In this document: in pieces, positions 10,538 to 61,321 of the stretch
Position numbering within the stretch: position 1 is the stretch's first letter
Layout: each line of letters begins with the position of its first letter
IMG/VR virus record: IMGVR_UViG_2513237368_000009
Strand: one strand, 5' to 3'
Source of the DNA: a virus
Lineage: Duplodnaviria; Heunggongvirae; Uroviricota; Caudoviricetes
DNA: 64,000 nt
Made by a program: the position numbers and the translations under genes
Notes under the pieces: model-generated
The model's input: only the letters and a program-made list of their open reading frames with translations
What the model was told of the DNA's origin: nothing
Databases searched by the model: none

Positions 10538-11050
10538 ATGAATTTAAGGTATGGAATTATTTTAGATAATTTTAAGAAAGAAACAGGTATTCAAGATGCA
10601 CGTTGGGTATTAGGTTGGGAAGGGTTTTATATTATTACACTTGATGGACAAGTTTTCAAAAAGAACAAGTACAACGCTTTGTTCAAGAGGTTAGCCATTA
10701 GTGATAAGAATGACGAAAATGCAGTAGTTTCATTCAAACATCCTTTTAAGAAGAGTGGACAAACAACAAAGAAAGATCAAGTTATCTATGAGGCATTTAT
10801 TGAGAAACTAGATAAGGGTTGGAAAGTTGTTCGTGATAGTAGTAATTTTGACATAAATAGACTTAATCTTGTACATTCAAATAACTCAAAGACAATTGGT
10901 TATTACGTGGATAATGTTTGCAAGAAAACATGGAGTTCAATTAACAAGGCAGCGTTTGATTTAGGTATAGAAGAGAACATCATTAAGAATATGATAACAA
11001 AAAATGATTTCTACAAGAACTCACCGTTTGAATTAAGGATGGTGGTATAG
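10538..11050 (+). CDS. hypothetical protein
   Basis: ORF track with strong RBS. Confidence 0.45.
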   Translation: MNLRYGIILDNFKKETGIQDARWVLGWEGFYIITLDGQVFKKNKYNALFKRLAISDKNDENAVVSFKHPFKKSGQTTKKDQVIYEAFIEKLDKGWKVVRDSSNFDINRLNLVHSNNSKTIGYYVDNVCKKTWSSINKAAFDLGIEENIIKNMITKNDFYKNSPFELRMVV

Positions 11051-11051
11051 T

Positions 11052-11531
11052 TTGAAATATTTTGGCGATGACTTCTATGATGTATTGCGAGACCTTGATA
11101 GGACTGAAATGTGGGCTAATAGACTTCCTGATACAGATCCTCGAATTATATTCATTCAAGAATATGCCAAGAGACGTGAGGAAGAGGTTAGAGAATATCG
11201 TGAGAATAATTCAGATGCAAGGAAAATTATGGAATTACACTATCTCAAAGGTTGGACTATTAAAGAGCTTGCGAAAGAATATTGCAAGACAGAGTGGGCT
11301 ATTACAAACATAATTTCAAAAGCTAGAAGATTCTTTGCCTTAGATGTTAAGACTGGACAGCTCAATAGATTCAAGACTTTTGGTGAACTTGCCGATTTTC
11401 TAGATATAAGCATAAGGAATACTCGATATTATTCAAAAAATTGCGTTTTAATTAATGAACGCTGGAGAGTATTTAACCAAAGACAATGGTTGGTAGAGGG
11501 GGAAGAAATGTATGAGCATCTTAGGAAATGA
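11052..11531 (+). CDS. sigma-70 region-4-like HTH protein (candidate phage sigma/transcription factor)
   Basis: LHYLKGWTIKELAKEYCKTEWAITNIISKARRFF resembles sigma region 4 / ECF sigma HTH. Confidence 0.4.
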   Translation: MKYFGDDFYDVLRDLDRTEMWANRLPDTDPRIIFIQEYAKRREEEVREYRENNSDARKIMELHYLKGWTIKELAKEYCKTEWAITNIISKARRFFALDVKTGQLNRFKTFGELADFLDISIRNTRYYSKNCVLINERWRVFNQRQWLVEGEEMYEHLRK

Positions 11532-16887: not shown

Positions 16888-16902
16888 GAGGAGGAAAAGA
16901 AT

Positions 16903-17082
16903 ATGAGTCAGAAGAGAGCTAGAAAATGGTACGATCAGTTAAAGGACACAAAGGTTCGTATGCGCAATGATGGTCATGAGATGTGGATTGAAAATAACAC
17001 TCTTGTCACTAGGAATATAGATAATGGCATTATTAGCAAGTATGATAAGTATGGATTTGTAATTGCAACAGAAATAATTTAA
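16903..17082 (+). CDS. small hypothetical protein (59 aa, not in ORF track)
   Basis: GAGGAGGAAAAG RBS then ATG 16903; stop TAA 17080. Confidence 0.4.
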   Translation: MSQKRARKWYDQLKDTKVRMRNDGHEMWIENNTLVTRNIDNGIISKYDKYGFVIATEII

Positions 17083-17100
17083 TAGTAGTAATATTGACAT
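17080..17100 (+). promoter_or_regulatory. conserved 21-bp motif, exact copy
   Basis: TAATAGTAGTAATATTGACAT then TTAGGAGG ATG. Confidence 0.6.
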
Positions 17101-17118
17101 TTAGGAGGTATAATAACA

Positions 17119-17268
17119 ATGTATTCATTTTTAATAATCTTAGGTATTTTGATATTTGCTTTAGTGGTCGAGTATTTAATCAAACCTATAATTTCTAAAC
17201 GTATGGGAGTTGATATGAAATGCAAGAACCAGATTGGTCGGCACTGGAGAGGTATAGAGAAAACTTAG
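17119..17268 (+). CDS. small membrane protein (49 aa, not in ORF track)
   Basis: AGGAGG RBS; hydrophobic MYSFLIILGILIFALVVEYLI. Confidence 0.35.
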   Translation: MYSFLIILGILIFALVVEYLIKPIISKRMGVDMKCKNQIGRHWRGIEKT

Positions 17269-17277
17269 AGATAGAAG

Positions 17278-17484
17278 ATGTTTTTGACACAAGAGAACCT
17301 TGGGAAATTGAGGAGGAGGAGGAAAATGAGGCGTACAAGAACAGTTTACGTTGTTTATGAGTCAGAATCTTTTGAGGGAATATCTAAAATTTTTGGAGTT
17401 TGCCAAGATATAGAATCTGCTGAACATTTATGTCATTGTGGTCATGGTTTTAGAGAATATGAAGAGGTAGCATACTTTGAATAA
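17278..17484 (+). CDS. hypothetical protein
   Basis: ORF track. Confidence 0.35.
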   Translation: MFLTQENLGKLRRRRKMRRTRTVYVVYESESFEGISKIFGVCQDIESAEHLCHCGHGFREYEEVAYFE

Positions 17485-29187: not shown

Positions 29188-29505
29188 TTGTTATTTATGA
29201 TAAAAATAAAGGGGCGTGATAACAGAGTGGATAGTCAAAAATTTATTAAGGCATGTAAGAGGTTGGTGGTAAGTTATACTAATGAACATTTAGACATTAC
29301 AAATCAGACCTTAGTTGGCGAATCAGATGTGTACGTTGTTTGGTCATCTAAAACATTGCAAAATAGCAAGGCGTGTTTAAGTACGAGATTACTTGATGAA
29401 ATGTACTATGAAATAACCTACAACGGAGATAGGAAGGAATTATATTTTGATGCCTATAAGAAATTTGAAAATAGAAAGATTGATGTTGATTTTGAGGAGG
29501 ACTAA
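29188..29505 (+). CDS. hypothetical protein
   Basis: ORF track. Confidence 0.4.
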   Translation: MLFMIKIKGRDNRVDSQKFIKACKRLVVSYTNEHLDITNQTLVGESDVYVVWSSKTLQNSKACLSTRLLDEMYYEITYNGDRKELYFDAYKKFENRKIDVDFEED

Positions 29506-29508
29506 CAA

Positions 29509-29754
29509 GTGAAAGCTAAAGAAACAGTAAACATTATTGCGGGCATTCTTGGACTAAAAGATGTCTCTGATGATGCAAAAATTGAAACAATCAAGAACGT
29601 AGTTGGGGACAATCGTGTCCCTATCATGACTCATGACGGGTATGTTAAAGATATCCGAGAAAAATTCCCTAATAAAGTATGGAGTGACAAGGACTTTGAA
29701 GTTACCAATAGAGGAATCATTAACCAAGAGAAAGCAATGCTAGGAGGAAAATAA
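29509..29754 (+). CDS. hypothetical protein
   Basis: ORF track (GTG start). Confidence 0.35.
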   Translation: MKAKETVNIIAGILGLKDVSDDAKIETIKNVVGDNRVPIMTHDGYVKDIREKFPNKVWSDKDFEVTNRGIINQEKAMLGGK

Positions 29755-29755
29755 G

Positions 29756-30145
29756 ATGATACGAAAGACTTTGATACCACGAGAAGAGTTCATAGCAAGA
29801 ATCCTCAACGATGAAGACACATATAGTTTCAATGAAGCTATTGGTCTTCTAGCTGAATTAAAGCCAGATCCAGAAAAGCTATTCTTTGAAGGTGAGAAAA
29901 CTACACAATTAATGTGGAGTGATTATCATAAATGTGTAACAGTTGATAGTATGCCACTTGATTATGATACTTTGAAGACCGCAATGCCGTTATCTGATAT
30001 TGAGAACCCTTGGACAGCTCAACGTATTGGTACACAAGAAGAGATTGAGGAACTAATGAAAGATCCAGCTTGGATTAGAGAACAGGCTGCATCATTTGGC
30101 GCTTGCATGGGTGAAGTCATGGAACAGAATAGTAATCAAGATTAA
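29756..30145 (+). CDS. hypothetical protein
   Basis: ORF track. Confidence 0.4.
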   Translation: MIRKTLIPREEFIARILNDEDTYSFNEAIGLLAELKPDPEKLFFEGEKTTQLMWSDYHKCVTVDSMPLDYDTLKTAMPLSDIENPWTAQRIGTQEEIEELMKDPAWIREQAASFGACMGEVMEQNSNQD

Positions 30146-30166
30146 TTATGAAAGAAGGCTGAACTC

Positions 30167-30421
30167 ATGGAGAAGAAGATTCTTACAGCAACAGTTATAC
30201 AGATTGATGACAATAAAGATGAAACTTTTAAGATAAAGTTTGATAAAGACGCAAACCAACATGAATGTGAAGTAGTCGTAATAAGAGCTTTGCAACTATT
30301 GCTCAACAAATTTGTTGACGATTCAGGATTGGATTTTGAAGAAGCTCTAAAGATATATTCTAATTCAATTGTAGCTCATTTGGGCGCATTGCATGATATG
30401 GACGAAAGCAGAAAGGGGTGA
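30167..30421 (+). CDS. hypothetical protein
   Basis: ORF track. Confidence 0.4.
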   Translation: MEKKILTATVIQIDDNKDETFKIKFDKDANQHECEVVVIRALQLLLNKFVDDSGLDFEEALKIYSNSIVAHLGALHDMDESRKG

Positions 30422-30623
30422 TTATTTACAATTCTTGAACGGAGTAGGTACTGGCATAATTTCAGTATTTTTTGTCTTTGTCATTATGACTTATAGTAAA
30501 GGGACACACCTCTCAATTGGAAATTACGATCTCGTAGACCACCCATATATTAGGTTAGCTATTACAATATTGCTATTGGTGATAATTCTGTTAAACGTAT
30601 TTACAAATTTATTTCAGAAATAA
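30393..30623 (+). CDS. small membrane protein
   Basis: two hydrophobic helices. Confidence 0.35.
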   Translation: MIWTKAERGDYLQFLNGVGTGIISVFFVFVIMTYSKGTHLSIGNYDLVDHPYIRLAITILLLVIILLNVFTNLFQK

Positions 30624-30641
30624 TAGTAGTAATATTGACAT
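30621..30641 (+). promoter_or_regulatory. conserved motif, exact copy, with TTGACA-17-TATAAT reading into noncoding region/tRNAs
   Basis: perfect sigma70-like geometry seen. Confidence 0.6.
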
Positions 30642-31315
30642 TTATACAAATGAGTTATATAATAATAACATGGTTGAGGTTGATAACAATATCCCCTTGG
30701 TTTGAATCCATAAAAATAGGCTTTTGATTAGTTCGATAGTCTAGCTTGTTGCATTAACAAATCTGAGTCGTAAAAAGCGTCAAAGAGGTCTAGTAACTAG
30801 AGAATGAGTACAATATTTGTCTACTCATAATATGATACTGACCAAGACGAATATTGTACAAAAAACCTTTGGCTGGCATCGGGCTAGGCTAGTAGAAGAT
30901 GTCCACTGTACAAGATGATAACTTGTACACTCCCTACTCATCAATAGGGTTATTCTGAATTACGACTCAGATACATAAAGGATTGGGAGATAGGGCGATA
31001 GTATTTGTCGCTGTCAACTATCTAAATAAAATGAGGAATTTAGTATTCTTCAAAGTCGCTTGGTTTTGTTAAGCATCCGTACCTTTTCCAAGGGACTGGC
31101 AGTGAATGTCATAGAATTGATTTGTTTCTAGAGCATATCAGTGGGAGCATCACCCACCATTCACATTAACACCTATTCTTTAGTGAGTACGAGTGTTGAG
31201 CGTTCATCAAATTGCCTTGCATGGCGAGAAAAATATGTTATCGGAGTGAGGCGGCAATACCAAAATTCAATGATGATAATATTGACAGAATTTTACTCTT
31301 TTGTCTGTCAAACAT
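30642..31315 (+). other. 0.67-kb ORF-free structured region downstream of promoter and upstream of tRNAs (candidate ncRNA/leader)
   Basis: no ORF over 60 aa on + strand; multiple hairpins, e.g. GAGTACAATATT..AATATTGTAC and GATAGT..ACTATC. Confidence 0.35.
31274..31288 (+). promoter_or_regulatory. partial motif copy (TGATAATATTGACAG) immediately upstream of tRNA-Arg
   Basis: 3' half of consensus. Confidence 0.35.
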
Positions 31316-31389
31316 AGTTGTGTAGCTCAATTGGATAGAGCAACTGACTTCTAATCAGTAGGTTATCGGTTCGAGTCCGATCATAACTA
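31316..31389 (+). tRNA. tRNA-Arg (anticodon TCT)
   Basis: manual fold: acceptor AGTTGTG/CATAACT, D-arm GCTC-AATTGGATA-GAGC, anticodon arm ACTGA-CTTCTAA-TCAGT, T-arm ATCGG-TTCGAGT-CCGAT. Confidence 0.75.
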
Positions 31390-31471
31390 TTACCAAAAAT
31401 AAAAATCATGGAGTTTTTGGTAATAATGCACGTTTTTACCCCAACAAGTATGAGTTCCAACAGCTCATAGT

Positions 31472-31542
31472 GCCTGATTAGTTCAATGGTAGAACATTGG
31501 TCTAGTAATCCAACGACAACAGTTCGATTCTGTTATTAGGCA
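31472..31542 (+). tRNA. tRNA (anticodon uncertain: AGT-Thr if loop CTAGTAA, or TAG-Leu)
   Basis: acceptor GCCTGAT/ATTAGGC, D-arm GTTC-AATGGTA-GAAC, T-arm AACAG-TTCGATT-CTGTT; anticodon stem has a T-T mismatch. Confidence 0.55.
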
Positions 31543-31547
31543 TTCGT

Positions 31548-31568
31548 TAATAGTATGAATATTGACAT
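31548..31568 (+). promoter_or_regulatory. conserved motif copy (TAATAGTATGAATATTGACAT)
   Basis: 19/21 to consensus; upstream of SPFH gene. Confidence 0.5.
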
Positions 31569-31601
31569 TAATGAAAAACAATATATTAGGGGGAATAGTT
31601 T

Positions 31602-32405
31602 TTGAAAAAAGCAATAATTGGTTTGGTTTCAGGTCTTGTGATCTTAGTGGCATTAATTATCGGATTATTCAGGTTCACTGAAAGAATTGATAATGGGAAT
31701 GTTGGTATTCGTTATTCTATGAATGGTGGAGTAAAGGACAAGGCACTTGGACAAGGTGTTCATTTTGTGGGATTTGATTATGTCACACAATATCCAATCA
31801 GAACACAAACTGTTCATCAAGAAGTCGGTTTAGCAACCAAAGATGGTAAGAAGACTGTTGTAAATATTTCATATGCTTATCATGTAGATGCCACTAAGGC
31901 AGTTAATGTCTACAAGAAATTTGGATCAGCAGATATTTTAAGTATAGAAAAAGGTTGGTTATCCCAAAAATTACAAAAGGCTGGCCGAGATACAATGTCT
32001 GAATATACATTGCTAGATGTGATGGGTTCTTCTTCAGCCAAGGTTCAAGGCGGTATTCTAACCGCATTCCAGCAATCAGTTGAGAAACAAGGCTTTATCA
32101 TTGAGGATTTATCGTTTGGTGTCCCTAGTGTGGATGCACAAACACAAAAATCAATTGATGATTTAATCAAAGCTGGACAAGATAATAAAAGAGCTGAACT
32201 TGAAGCAAAATCTAAGCAAATTAAAGCAGAGGCCGCAGCCAAAGCTAAATTGACAAGAGCAGATGCTACTGCTCAGGCCAATGAAAAGATCAACAATTCT
32301 GTTACTGATAAGACTATTCAGTACATGGAAGCACAAGCTCGATTGAAACATGGTTGGGTTACTACACAAGGTAACGGTTCTGTTATCACTGATCAAACAA
32401 AGTAG
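31602..32405 (+). CDS. SPFH/band-7 (prohibitin/stomatin-like) membrane protein
   Basis: N-terminal TM anchor then NVGIRYSMNGG...GVHFV core; coiled-coil A/K/E-rich C-terminus. Confidence 0.5.
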   Translation: MKKAIIGLVSGLVILVALIIGLFRFTERIDNGNVGIRYSMNGGVKDKALGQGVHFVGFDYVTQYPIRTQTVHQEVGLATKDGKKTVVNISYAYHVDATKAVNVYKKFGSADILSIEKGWLSQKLQKAGRDTMSEYTLLDVMGSSSAKVQGGILTAFQQSVEKQGFIIEDLSFGVPSVDAQTQKSIDDLIKAGQDNKRAELEAKSKQIKAEAAAKAKLTRADATAQANEKINNSVTDKTIQYMEAQARLKHGWVTTQGNGSVITDQTK

Positions 32406-32414
32406 GTGTGAGTC

Positions 32415-32618
32415 ATGGTATTTTTCGTAACTAAAATACTCATATTACTAATCATCATTATTTTATTGGCTATTGCTTATATCTTAGTTAAACAATATTT
32501 TAGCCATACCAATAAGAACAAGAGCAAAACACGCATTAATGTTACTGATCGTAATGGAAATATTACACAAGTTAATGTCAATGGTGAGACTGTAAATATT
32601 GAATCAAAAAAAGATTAG
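32415..32618 (+). CDS. small membrane protein
   Basis: single TM, follows SPFH gene. Confidence 0.4.
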   Translation: MVFFVTKILILLIIIILLAIAYILVKQYFSHTNKNKSKTRINVTDRNGNITQVNVNGETVNIESKKD

Positions 32619-32858
32619 GATGAAAATGGACAAGCCATTAATGGGAAATGCAAATTTTCCCTCATTCTTATTCCATAGCTTACTATGGAAAATAAAAATA
32701 TGCTTTGTCTCGTATTTTTATTTGTTACACTTCAACTTCAACGAAAAATAAGAACCGAACAGAGGTGATAGTATATGATGATCTTTACATAGTATCAGCA
32801 TTTAAAGTTGCTGGTACTATGTTTTTTTTTGACACAATAATAAAAAAGGGGCGTGTAT

Positions 32859-33500
32859 ATGGCTGTGATTGTATTAAGTGGAACTATTGGAGCGGGAAAA
32901 TCAAGTCTAACAGGAATGTTAGCAGAAAAATTAGGGACTACAGCATTCTATGAAAGTGTTGATGATAATGAAGTGTTACCTCTATTCTATTCAGATCCAA
33001 AGAAGTATGCTTTTTTATTGCAAATCTATTTTTTAAATAAACGTTTTGCATCAATTAAAGCTGCATTAAAGGACGATAATAACATTCTGGACAGGTCTAT
33101 CTATGAGGATAGCCTATTATTCCACCTCAATGCCGATTTAGGTCGTGCAAATCAGAAAGAAGTAGACGTTTATGACGAGCTGCTAGACAATATGTTGGAG
33201 CGTATCAGTAAATCAGATATTAATACTGCTCCAGACTTATTGGTTCATATTAGAGTATCATTCGATACCATGATGAAACGTATTGTTAAACGTGGACGTG
33301 AGTACGAACAGATTGAGAATGATCCAGACTTGTATGAATATTACAATGAACTGAATCGGAGATATGATAGATGGTACAATGATTTTGATATTTGTCCAAA
33401 AATTCAAATTGACGGAGACAAGTATGATTTCGTTGAAAACCCAGACGATGCTGAGAAAGTTTTAAAAGACATTGAAACGAAGTTAGCTGAAATCAGATAG
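32859..33500 (+). CDS. deoxynucleoside kinase (dAK/dGK/dCK family)
   Basis: Walker A LSGTIGAGKSS, FYESVDDNEVLPLFY, LDRSIYED (ERS-like) motifs; ATG 32859 after AAAAGGGG. Confidence 0.6.
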   Translation: MAVIVLSGTIGAGKSSLTGMLAEKLGTTAFYESVDDNEVLPLFYSDPKKYAFLLQIYFLNKRFASIKAALKDDNNILDRSIYEDSLLFHLNADLGRANQKEVDVYDELLDNMLERISKSDINTAPDLLVHIRVSFDTMMKRIVKRGREYEQIENDPDLYEYYNELNRRYDRWYNDFDICPKIQIDGDKYDFVENPDDAEKVLKDIETKLAEIR

Positions 33501-59358: not shown

Positions 59359-59467
59359 TAATAAGAAACTCTTTCTTTTTACGTTCTTTTGCATTGATAA
59401 GTTTTCTATTCATGAACATACCTCATTTATAGTGTACTTTAAAAGCCTGTTACTTTTGCAGAGTAAA

Positions 59468-59539
59468 CAGATCATGTTGGAATCGAACCAACGTCAAGAG
59501 TTTTGGAGACTCCTATTCTACCAATTGAACTAATGACCT
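59468..59539 (-). tRNA. tRNA-Trp (anticodon CCA)
   Basis: manual fold on minus strand: acceptor AGGTCAT/ATGATCT, D-arm GTTC-AATTGGTA-GAAT, anticodon arm GGAGT-CTCCAAA-ACTCT, T-arm GTTGG-TTCGATT-CCAAC. Confidence 0.65.
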
Positions 59540-59893
59540 ATATAGTTACAAGGCTGCTTTTGAGGTCTATTACCTTGTTCGCAGCATTCAACGGAACTTG
59601 CGTATTCTAATTCAAAAACATGTAGTATTTGAAATGTGACCCACATTACTGATCACCCTCGCACCCTGTAATTATAAAAGAATTAATTTATAGTCGTACT
59701 TTAATCGACTTTTATCCAGCCAATAAATGCAAGTTCTATGGATTCACTCCTAACTTGCAATGCTCAGGGAAGGATTTGCACCTACATAGCCACAATGACG
59801 ACAGATTTACAGTCTGCGGAGTTCTCTAATACTCAGCCCAAGCGTGTTATTCTTATTTATTTGTTTCCAATTTTGAATCTAAAATCTGAGTAC

Positions 59894-60184
59894 GTTTTCC
59901 TTATCTAAAGGTTTTAATCTGACTAAAACGCATGTATGCTAACCATTGCAGTTTTCCCTATCTAAGGATTCTAGTCAAACTAAAACAAGAGCTTTCAATA
60001 CACATTTCAGTCCAGTGTTTTCCTTATCTAAGGATTCTAGTCAAACTAAAACGCTTTTTCGGAATATCCTATCTTGTCTGTAGTTTTCCTTATCTAAGGA
60101 TTCTAGTCAAACTAAAACTACAGTTGGAAAATCAAGTAAGAAGTTACAGTTTTCCTTATCTAAGGATTCTAGTCAAACTAAAAC
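59894..60184 (-). CRISPR. CRISPR mini-array: 5 x 36-bp repeats (consensus on + strand GTTTTCCTTATCTAAGGATTCTAGTCAAACTAAAAC), spacers of 21, 30, 30, 30 nt
   Basis: repeats at 59894, 59951, 60017, 60083, 60149; leftmost repeat degenerate with truncated spacer, so leader inferred at right and transcription on minus strand (repeat then reads GTTTTAG..., type II-A-like). Confidence 0.85.
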
Positions 60185-60287
60185 CTCAAAATATCCTATC
60201 ATCACTTCAAGGCTTCCTAGGAACTCCGAACCATTGTCCAGATATTTACTAGGCTATTATGGATTGATGGAAACTTCCAATCCTAAT

Positions 60288-60368
60288 GGAACTGGATAGA
60301 TTTGAACTATCTGAGCTTTTAACACTTCCAGTTATTGAGTATTACTAGCATTACCCAATTCAGTTCCG
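60288..60368 (-). tRNA. tRNA-like element (81 nt) with aberrant core; possible unusual or pseudo-tRNA
   Basis: perfect 7-bp acceptor GGAACTG/CAGTTCC and canonical T-arm GATAG-TTCAAAT-CTATC; D/anticodon arms could not be folded canonically by hand. Confidence 0.35.
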
Positions 60369-60970
60369 TTTTCGGGAGAAACTCTCTTTATACTGGTTCT
60401 CCTCTTGTTCCAGTTATGCAAGTGGCATGGATTCAAACCATACAGTGACTAACTTTATAATACTGGCTTACCTCGTACATTAGGTGTAGTCAGGTGTTCT
60501 CACGGTTTTACTCACGCAACCAGTCAAACCTTAGCGTTACTCTCTGCGCCACACTTGCTAGTAATCTACCCGAAGGAAACCAACCATAAGAAGGTCTAAG
60601 TAGTAGAATGGGAACTCACATGCCCCACTTGAATGGACGATTGCCTATACCACATCGCTCACGTTCTTTCCTTTTTAGTGACCACACTAGCAGCTCGGTA
60701 TAGAACCTACTCGTTGGATTTAATCTCAAACCCGATGATTCAATGTCTATATTAGCATTGAATTATTTTTGACTAGTCATAATTCCAAAAAACCGCCTTT
60801 GTGGGTCGAACCGAATTATGTTGACGAAATGTCTAGAGTGTCAATTCTATTAACATTTCACCCTTTTTGACATATCTAGGAAAGATTTGACTGATCTTTC
60901 AGTTGTATGCTAGTGCCAATGGATTGGGTTTAATTTATTACTGCGTATTTAAAGATTACTTTAAATACTA

Positions 60971-61039
60971 TGTGACATATGAGAATCGAACTCATATCAC
61001 TTGTGAAGGTCAAGTGCGCTACCATTACGCCAATGTCAC
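60971..61039 (-). tRNA. tRNA-like (69 nt), anticodon loop ACCTTCA (CTT-Lys reading but C33/C37 non-canonical)
   Basis: perfect acceptor GTGACAT/ATGTCAC, D-arm GCGT-AATGGTA-GCGC, stem CACTTG/CAAGTG, T-arm ATGAG-TTCGATT-CTCAT. Confidence 0.45.
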
Positions 61040-61258
61040 TACGATGCGTTTAATATAATCGCCAAATTATATTAAACGACTTTTAGGAGGCGAACCGCCA
61101 ATAAAAAACGTAATATGACCAGTAGGAATCGAACCTACAAGCCTCGCCAGTGTAAGACCTATTATTTCAAGGTGAATATTACATACTGTCGTCTGCCAGA
61201 CGAGGGTAATACCGCAAATAGCCATAACTTAATTATAATATAACATATCATATTAAAT

Positions 61259-61283
61259 ATGTCAATATTACTACTATTAAATT
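61259..61283 (-). promoter_or_regulatory. conserved motif, exact copy (minus: AATTTAATAGTAGTAATATTGACAT) with TTGACA-17-TATATT, reading into tRNA/CRISPR cluster
   Basis: reverse complement read; downstream (lower coordinates) are tRNA-like genes and the array. Confidence 0.55.
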
Positions 61284-61321
61284 TGTTATATTACGCAAAA
61301 TAAAGCAATATAACAAATAAT

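Follow-up and report, generated by a model that had tools for sequence, protein, structure and literature searches.

What kind of element occupies the 0.67 kb that separate a perfect consensus promoter from the tRNA-Arg gene in the viral record IMGVR_UViG_2513237368_000009, and is it one RNA or several? Within the 64,000 nt of this record that we analyzed (referred to below as the window), the approximately 645 nt that run from the predicted transcription start to the base before the tRNA gene very probably constitute a genuine transcribed and structured noncoding RNA (ncRNA) region, as judged from the sequence. The stretch is best explained, with moderate confidence, as the noncoding front of an ncRNA-tRNA transcription unit. 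As to the second part of the question, we lean toward the view that the 645 nt form a chain of modules (A, B, C1-C3, D and E), each folding and inherited independently of the others, that would be processed as described below.

The noncoding stretch and its fold

The absence of open reading frames (ORFs) from the 0.67-kb stretch, as claimed in the original prediction, was confirmed, as no ORF of at least 70 amino acids is present between 30624 and 31601 on either strand. The longest plus-strand ORF in the stretch encodes 58 amino acids (31141-31317, with a GTG start); it is disrupted by a 1-nt indel, and hence a frameshift, in L047, a contig that is about 90% identical over the region, and a match to it was sought among PHROG families and not found. 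Hidden protein genes in the stretch were rejected on these grounds. It is also right that this is the longest noncoding stretch on the plus strand: the only longer ORF-poor stretch of the window (60253-61321) lies on the opposite strand, and a competing gap at 16888-17476 was rejected because it is filled by small ORFs preceded by ribosome-binding sites.

The plus-strand RNA of the stretch has a minimum free energy (MFE) of -184.7 kcal/mol, which corresponds to z = -4.64 relative to dinucleotide shuffles, none of which (0 of 20) folded as well, whereas its reverse complement folds in an ordinary manner (z = -0.91). Since folding is strand-asymmetric and the composite structure holds 10 G-U pairs, which are A-C mismatches on the opposite strand, the structure appears to be a property of RNA and not of DNA. 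Relative to L047, 7.1% of the positions within pairs are substituted, compared with 12.7% of those outside pairs. The complementary segments quoted in the original prediction are real: 30808-30822 is complementary to 30845-30859 (15 nt, 93%), and GGGCGATAGTATTTGTCGC...CTATC is the hairpin designated here as C1 (30988-31023). A long-range inverted repeat, perfect at 13 of 13 positions, joins 30761-30773 with 30960-30972, 186 nt apart. The accompanying idea that long-range pairing ties the stretch into a unit held in part, in that the structure stands but takes the form of autonomous modules. The MFE pairing of the 5' end (30690-30712) with 30981-30996, which would have tied the unit together, was rejected because it is disrupted by substitutions in L047.

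The TTGACA-17-TATAAT promoter at 30635 is as perfect as had been stated and is the sole 12/12 match within 29500-33000. In its extended form, ATATTGACA-N15-19-TATAAT, it is found at two places in the window versus zero expected, and the promoter is a member of an over-represented, phage-wide AATATTGACA class that has 14 exact copies in the window. Both hexamers are unchanged in L047, and the spacer carries 5 substitutions. Transcription from this promoter would start near 30670. The structured stretch, tRNA-Arg and tRNA-Thr are co-oriented and directly continuous, and no terminator-like site was found between 30950 and 32640, nor any before 32643. Taken together, the strand-specific fold, the compensatory changes in its helices, the conserved promoter and the lack of a conserved ORF support the suggestion of an ncRNA or a long structured 5' leader of the tRNAs.

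Modules and their inheritance

Only three independent lineages carry any of modules B to E, namely the window together with L047, L031, and L055, and in these contigs, from related myophages of Liquorilactobacillus, the helices are kept by compensatory changes. L047, a 128-kb contig that is apparently a complete phage genome, and the identical Logan contigs L048-L052 contain the entire region at about 90% identity. L031 is a 122-kb IMG/VR contig in which the SPFH/prohibitin-like gene that follows the tRNAs has 97% identity to that of the window and in which 30985-31175 and 31229-31320 are kept at 76-78%. The 5' half (A and B) is replaced in L031 by an approximately 130-nt tRNA-like element, and an insertion of approximately 850 nt, including a 114-amino-acid ORF, lies between D and E, such that C, D and E are retained without A and without the promoter. 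In L055, a 72.8-kb Logan contig with an SPFH gene of 87% identity, homologues of 31076-31167 (two copies) and 30772-30961 are located downstream of the SPFH gene with their order reversed, which gives the succession C/D, tRNA-like element, second D, B and tRNA-Trp.

Searches beyond these lineages returned little. The INPHARED collection contained no close relatives of the phage, and a blastn search of it in 'distant' mode matched the 42-nt module A alone. No homologous RNA was found beside the SPFH gene in relatives with 60-77% identity (L032-L039, L058-L068). Exact-pattern scans for GTCGCTTGGTTTTGTTAA among viral contigs recovered L031's own contig alone; those for TAGTAGAAGATGTCCACTG gave no matches among viral contigs and one chance match among genome contigs, in a metagenome-assembled genome of Ignavibacteriaceae; and those for GGTTTTGTTAANNNTCCGTACC in metagenomes gave six chance matches without further similarity.

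We favor a chain of autonomous modules over one fixed fold because the pairing of the 5' end is broken in L047 and module B is closed upon itself, because L055 has a permuted module order and a second D and L031 lacks A and B, and because module A has wholly different partners in prophages. Module B, a multi-branched domain, contains a two-hairpin branch that includes a variable 15-bp hairpin (30808-30859), followed by three more hairpins, and sequence blocks such as GCUAGUAGAAGAUGUCCACUGUA are invariant in it. An alignment of the window, L047 and L055 (A2) has 93% of the cells of the 65 pairs of module B paired, and 19 of these pairs are changed on both sides, compared with 1-3 after the partners had been shifted against each other by 1-3 columns; the observed values were reached by none of 500 shuffles. 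Neither in the window nor in L055 does the closing stem of module B contain a mismatch, yet 9 of its 13 pairs differ between the two in a compensatory manner. Module B directly precedes tRNA-Trp in L055.

The hairpins of module C vary in a similar fashion. The outer stem of C1 reads AGACGA/UCGUCU in L031, with three compensatory pairs, and the inner stem varies only via G-U intermediates. Pairing in C2 is preserved as AAAGAAU/AUUCUUU in L047 and AAAGA/UCUUU in L031. The stem of C3 differs in each phage (CUUGG/CCAAG in the window, CCACUUA/UAAGUGG in L047, GUCGC/GCGAU in L031 and UUUCC/GGAAA in L055), and the block (C/G)GUACCUUU of its loop is present in four of four phages. The loop has a palindromic core, GUAC, which is GGUACC in L055.

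Five copies of module D could be aligned (A4: window, L047, L031 and two of L055); 94% of the cells are paired, and both sides have changed in 5 of 17 pairs. Helices D1 and D3 (7 bp and 5 bp) are 100% paired in the five copies and covary. The hairpin at 31141-31157 has 5 bp and a 7-nt loop, AGCRUYA, and its 3' strand abuts the 3' strand of the 7-bp stem (31153-31164), resulting in a 7+5-bp stack directly followed by a U. With a 12-bp coaxial stack, a continuous 3' strand and a 7-nt loop, the modeled stack of module D resembles a tRNA acceptor/T-arm minihelix without the anticodon arm. A covariance model of module D (R1) detected no further copies in the window or in approximately 420 kb of fetched loci. 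In module E, stem E1 encloses the conserved GGAGUGAG...CAAAAUUCAAUGAUGAUA and hairpin E2 stops 4 nt before tRNA-Arg. E1 is CUAUC/GAUAG in L031, which is a compensatory change, and E2 is changed there with its pairing intact.

Module A begins 7 nt after the predicted start and includes a 3-bp hairpin whose 7-nt loop, UUUGAAU, resembles a T-loop. It shares 90-95% identity with a 42-nt segment of Lactococcus phage PLgT-1 and 27 IMG/VR contigs. The prophage copies of module A directly follow a tRNA or tRNA-like element upstream of terS, and they head an RNA of approximately 230 nt with a tRNA-like acceptor/T-arm at its end. These RNAs (L001 2500-2730 in PLgT-1, and L003-L029) form an apparently undescribed family with 25 distinct sequences and no match in Rfam. 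They consist of module A, hairpins with swapped covarying sequences, and then a tRNA-like end, UAGCAAG...CAGGG-UUCGACU-CCCUG-A-CUUGCUA, that contains a genuine T-arm with the loop UUCGACU. Tandem copies behind a tRNA are frequent, and an Alt-like activator gene and terS lie on either side. An nhmmer profile of the family matches the window at 30678-30759 (E = 1.6e-13). Beyond module A there is weak collinear similarity over approximately 40 nt, and both RNAs are found among tRNAs or tRNA-like elements; in contrast, the remaining 190 nt or so of the PLgT-1-type RNA and its tRNA-like 3' end have no counterpart in the window, and modules B to E are absent from the prophages. The coordinates of all modules are compiled in Table 1. 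The sequence between A and B (30715-30763) is nearly unchanged in L047 and so is uninformative with regard to covariation.

Table 1. Features of the promoter-ncRNA-tRNA locus, in coordinates of the window.
Feature	Coordinates	Strand	Description
Consensus sigma-A/sigma-70 promoter	30635-30663	+	-35 TTGACA at 30635-30640, 17-nt spacer, -10 TATAAT at 30658-30663
Whole noncoding structured stretch	30670-31314	+	about 645 nt, from predicted start to base before tRNA-Arg
Module A	30677-30719	+	hairpin 30678-30695; 3-bp hairpin 30698-30710; AUAAAAA tail
A-B linker hairpin(s)	30715-30763	+	single-sequence fold prediction
Module B	30761-30973	+	213-nt multi-branched domain; 13-bp closing stem 30761-30773 with 30960-30972
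Hairpin C1	30988-31023	+	outer stem AGAUAG/CUAUCU, inner stem GGCGA/UCGCU
Hairpin C2	31033-31051	+	GAGGAAU/AUUCUUC
Hairpin C3	31055-31096	+	variable stem; 24-nt loop UUUUGUUAAGCAUCCGUACCUUUU, almost invariant
Module D	31102-31164	+	three-way junction: 7-bp stem 31102-31108/31158-31164, hairpin 31112-31130, 10-nt linker, hairpin 31141-31157
D-E linker	31170-31237	+	three small hairpins, single-sequence fold; weakest part of the map
Module E	31238-31311	+	stem E1 UUAUC/GAUAA (31238-31242 with 31275-31279); 8-bp hairpin E2 (31282-31311)
tRNA-Arg	31315-31390	+	anticodon UCU; ARAGORN and Rfam, 72.9 bits
tRNA-Thr	31471-31543	+	anticodon AGU; second tRNA of the unit; ARAGORN and Rfam

Known RNAs, processing and rival explanations

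Rfam 15 models were run over the whole window at gathering thresholds and over sub-scans of 1301, 317 and 347 nt at E <= 10. Only tRNAs and noise, such as OmrA-B (21 bits, on the wrong strand), were returned, and only tRNAs and a transfer-messenger RNA (tmRNA) for the relatives L047 and L055. By model score, the stretch is not ROOL, GOLLD, a group I or II intron, a riboswitch, a T-box, a tmRNA or a known ribozyme. Neither the tRNA model (RF00005) nor ARAGORN at its default settings recognized a cloverleaf in the stretch, and both reported only the two annotated tRNAs.

Like the stretch, ROOL and GOLLD are phage or prophage RNAs found near tRNAs (PMC12286853), and the phage studied here has Herelleviridae-type relatives. 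ROOL averages 581 nt (PMC5737381) compared with approximately 645 nt here, and it is a multi-junction RNA of Lactobacillales phages and prophages located beside or inside tRNA islands (PMC5737381, PMC12286853). The ROOL gathering threshold (RF03087, 99.1 bits) was not reached in the window, and the sub-scans gave no match at E <= 10; the ROOL of Lactobacillus phage LP65, used as a positive control, scored 128.4 bits in the same type of scan. This ROOL (L002 4471-5045), from a related myophage, is unannotated and is flanked by tRNA-Asn and tRNA-Leu within a tRNA array. ROOL adopts one conserved fold that includes pseudoknots, whereas the modules here are permuted, duplicated or lost in relatives and no conserved pairing spans the entire region. 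GOLLD shares with the stretch a variable 5' part, a more conserved 3' part and tRNAs that are sometimes inside it (PMC12286853). The stretch is smaller, however, a shared conserved 3' domain beyond C3-D is unsupported, and the GOLLD covariance model (RF01998), which represents the conserved 3' domain, was unmatched in the whole window and in the sub-scans.

The order promoter, long noncoding RNA (lncRNA), tRNAs recurs in phage K (Kayvirus, Herelleviridae), whose lnc001 and lnc002 are 635 nt and 1154 nt long and adjoin tRNA genes, one of the two having its own early promoter and the highest read count of the phage transcripts (PMC9241854). The present stretch likewise comprises more than 600 nt of noncoding sequence behind a sigma-A-type promoter. 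The two differ in sequence, in that BLAST at word size 7 produced only chance matches and R1 found no module D, and the structures of the phage K lncRNAs are undescribed, which leaves homology unjudgeable. BLAST found no similarity of the stretch to the phage K lncRNAs, to the LP65 ROOL or to a 640-nt noncoding stretch of another contig (L025, see below). A further parallel is offered by the 'species 1' and 'species 2' RNAs of T4 (rnaC and rnaD), which are small, stable, structured RNAs that are co-transcribed with the T4 tRNAs and cut by the tRNA-processing machinery. They are about 120-140 nt each and belong to another phage group and host, and the modules here are more numerous and larger, but the mechanism parallels the release of modules that we propose.

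By what mechanism might such a chain give rise to separate RNAs? Sequence and conservation suggest that a host sigma-A promoter would start the RNA near 30670. In SPO1-like phages consensus sigma-A promoters constitute the early class, and by analogy the promoter at 30635 is probably early; from this and the precedent of the phage K lncRNA, an abundant early transcript is expected. The modules, whose helices are themselves shown by covariation, would fold co-transcriptionally. Host tRNA-maturation nucleases may then cut at both tRNAs and probably also at the minihelix-like module D, which would free the modules as discrete, stable and abundant RNAs. We propose cutting at these places because of the minihelix geometry of module D and because a module adjoins a tRNA both in L055 (B) and here (E). 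RNase P, RNase Z and the CCA-adding enzyme require no more than an acceptor/T minihelix as substrate, and release by tRNA cutting would parallel the tRNA punctuation of mitochondria. Speculatively, the freed RNAs may act in trans during infection, with host RNA-binding or tRNA-directed factors as the targets of scaffolds or decoys; such roles are suspected for ROOL, GOLLD and the phage K lncRNAs, and analogy with the first two would also suggest cages. We rate any specific function of this kind, argued by analogy, as unlikely at best. A bolder version, rather improbable when its parts are taken jointly, holds that B and C3-D found new 'ornate' phage RNA classes that are abundant and cut from a tRNA-punctuated precursor. 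Under this version the GUAC/GGUACC loops of C3 would assemble RNA-only particles like those of ROOL and GOLLD or, as an alternative role, the RNAs would be anticodon-less tRNA mimics that absorb host tRNA-directed defence nucleases or processing enzymes, and module A, with its 90-95% identity across a virulent Liquorilactobacillus myophage and temperate Lactococcus phages, would be a portable 5' control element, such as a put-like antiterminator acting on host RNA polymerase.

Several observations weigh against a chain of modules processed in this way. The covariation rests on three to five sequences, and the shuffle controls therefore overstate significance. In a MAFFT alignment of the window with L047, 10 of the 19 changed pairs look broken, part of which is accounted for by a register shift in C3. 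The folds at 30715-30763 and 31170-31237 are single-sequence predictions. The loop of module D, AGCRUYA, is not the canonical T-loop UUCRANY, and no tRNA model match backs recognition of module D by RNase P or RNase Z. Lastly, the trans-acting function is drawn from analogy alone.

An alternative explanation is that the stretch specifies a single 'ornate' RNA of approximately 645 nt, a distant functional analogue of ROOL and GOLLD that is possibly homo-oligomeric, with C3-D-E as its core and A-B as a variable 5' part. Its size equals that of the ROOL class (PMC5737381) and it occupies the same niche beside phage tRNAs; GOLLD, too, varies in its 5' half and can hold tRNAs in a linker (PMC12286853), which may be compared with the tRNA-like element and insertion of L031; and the GUAC palindrome in the invariant loop of C3, extended to GGUACC in L055, could give a kissing dimer. 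We nevertheless regard a single RNA as unlikely, given that the ROOL and GOLLD models are unmatched at E <= 10, that L055 is permuted with a duplicate D, L031 is without B and B is self-closed, and that the sole long-range MFE pairing that ties the ends together is broken in L047. Somewhat less probable still is a purely cis-acting leader, the structures of which would serve only the stability, processing or timing of the transcript of the tRNAs (and perhaps of SPFH), and in which module A might be a 5' stabilizer or a put-like processive antiterminator for read-through of the hairpins. The position of module A 7 nt past the predicted start fits this idea, as do its far greater conservation than that of its surroundings and its place in prophages, where it likewise opens a structured RNA that lies upstream of the late operon (terS) and beside an Alt-like activator gene. 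It also fits that the way from the region to the tRNAs and on to the SPFH gene is free of terminators and of well-spaced promoters. However, 645 nt with a 213-nt five-helix domain and invariant loops exceeds the needs of stabilization, the modules move independently of any particular tRNA or gene, and C, D and E persist in L031 without A or the promoter.

The original prediction also entertained degenerate tRNA remnants and an ORF-less, intron-like ribozyme, neither of which gained support. Functionless decayed tRNA genes or pseudo-tRNAs from a larger array would be in keeping with the location in a tRNA island, the T-loop-like UUUGAAU hairpin of module A, the 7+5-bp geometry of module D, the identity of 30725-30740 with the D-arm region of tRNA-Thr at 14 of 16 positions, and the 'tRNA-Pro' (30663-30752) called by ARAGORN at an 80% threshold. 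This explanation is largely refuted and very improbable: the tRNA covariance models are unmatched inside 30664-31314 even at E <= 10, the best similarity to the four tRNAs of the window was equaled by 21 to 187 of 300 shuffles, the calls of ARAGORN at the relaxed threshold are mostly, and in part obviously, spurious, and pseudogenes would not preserve helices by compensatory change or keep loops invariant. Tested as a candidate by model match and by similarity to the tRNAs of the window, tRNA remnants were rejected. About equally improbable is that the stretch is a DNA-level element (a replication origin, a packaging or recombination site, or an insertion like a miniature inverted-repeat transposable element) or contains hidden small protein genes. 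The perfect 13-nt inverted repeats 186 nt apart, the mobility of the modules between loci and the AT-richness of the region might be taken to indicate such an element, but the fold is strand-asymmetric with G-U pairs, tandem iterons are lacking, the longest ORF is frameshifted in L047 and without a family match, and from phage to phage the repeats of module B have changed at 9 of 13 positions and yet remain complementary, which points to RNA pairing and not to a transposase site. A self-splicing or self-cleaving ribozyme, be it an ORF-less group I or II intron or another known class, is exceedingly improbable. Introns are common in SPO1-like phages and the stretch is large, highly structured and ORF-free, but intron and ribozyme families are unmatched among 4227 Rfam models at E <= 10, and the stretch interrupts no gene, as it is flanked by a promoter and a complete tRNA and not by parts of a split gene.

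The surrounding genome and the phage tRNA niche

The window is part of an AT-rich phage genome (33.5% GC), and its source is best explained, again with moderate confidence, as a virulent SPO1-like (Herelleviridae-type) phage of Liquorilactobacillus. The SPFH/prohibitin-like gene at 31602-32405 has 51% identity to genes of Enterococcus Schiekvirus myophages, and its protein is 97% identical to an annotated protein of a Liquorilactobacillus hordei assembly, on contig L047. A relative of the phage is present in GCA_047726065.1, and the phage itself occurs in public runs such as SRR26215803 and SRR16036397. Just upstream of the SPFH gene, the upstream/-35 box of the promoter recurs at 31548-31577 as a 30-nt near-copy (83%), TAATAGTATGAATATTGACATTAATGAAAA, behind which no -10 hexamer was found at a spacing of 16-18 nt. 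It is possible, since this near-copy lacks a -10 hexamer, that the SPFH gene partly needs read-through from the promoter at 30635, and the transcript may extend into the gene because neither a terminator nor a well-spaced promoter intervenes.

A second ncRNA/tRNA unit is located on the minus strand of the window, from approximately 61270 to 59460. It has a promoter box, AATAGTAGTAATATTGACA, followed by 17 nt and TATATT, and shares the upstream box TAATAGTAGTAATATTGACA with the promoter at 30635. The unit consists of about 1 kb free of ORFs, tRNA-Lys (60971-61039), a CRISPR-like (clustered regularly interspaced short palindromic repeats) array and tRNA-Trp (59467-59540), together with a weak tRNA match at 59761-59843 that scores 32.5 bits in Rfam and is not called by ARAGORN. 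The mini-array (59890-60189, minus strand) has five 36-nt direct repeats, GTTTTAGTTTGACTAGAATCCTTAGATAAGGAAAAC, with a 66-nt period and unique spacers of approximately 30 nt, and its last repeat is degenerate. No Rfam CRISPR-DR model matched it, and neither a cas gene nor an anti-repeat was seen in the window. A trans-activating CRISPR RNA or anti-repeat was rejected as a candidate, as an RNAduplex scan of both strands gave strong duplexes only within the array itself. In the same unit, 60414-60556 (minus strand) is a tRNA-like element of approximately 130-143 nt that also occurs in L031 (2527-2656), in which a perfect 7-bp acceptor stem (GCAAGUG/CACUUGC), a D-arm resembling class II and a T-arm with the loop UUUGAAU are combined with an insert, large and irregular, in place of the anticodon arm. 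The element is unseen by tRNA finders, and its 35-nt 3' end is 88.6% identical between the phages of the window and L031.

Additional structured RNAs were observed in the relatives. L055 encodes a tmRNA (2420-2775, 113 bits, tag ANKPVKAAA) and a tRNA-Tyr(GUA) that has a 21-nt intron in the ARAGORN model (2199-2308). L031 (2922-3148) and L055 (5065-5293) share a conserved noncoding module, with 83% identity over 230 nt, that is absent from the window; it ends in a T-arm-like GGUUCGAAUCC / GAGUUCAAAUCUC, and at relaxed settings ARAGORN reports a tRNA-Thr interrupted by a 141-nt intron. In L025 (IMGVR_UViG_641509434_000001, 79 kb), an unrelated 640-nt ORF-free stretch (10551-11190) lies directly 5' of a tRNA-Arg(UCU) that is 83% identical to that of the window. 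It has z = -9.3 on the plus strand and z = -7.4 on the minus strand and no match in Rfam, and L025 also carries module A approximately 700 nt upstream of it. This stretch looks like a positional analogue of the present locus.

By all of the membership tests that were run, the stretch belongs to no described family, and its modular, shuffled organization is unusual. The locus appears to harbor RNA families that are undetected by any Rfam 15 model, in a known niche of large structured RNA in phage tRNA islands, and the known distribution of the modules is narrow. Elaborate and abundant structured RNAs beside phage tRNAs, such as GOLLD, ROOL and the phage K lncRNAs, have been a long-standing puzzle, and species 1 and 2 of T4 are counted among them. 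Two of these RNAs, ROOL and GOLLD, have meanwhile been shown to assemble into cages made only of RNA. The modularity of the present locus provides an experimental handle, as single modules of 60-210 nt are separable. Given that LP65 has a ROOL in this position, the present phage has modules A to E and L025 has an unrelated 640-nt stretch, our findings suggest that the niche is filled by different lineage-specific RNAs that are built from exchangeable modules.

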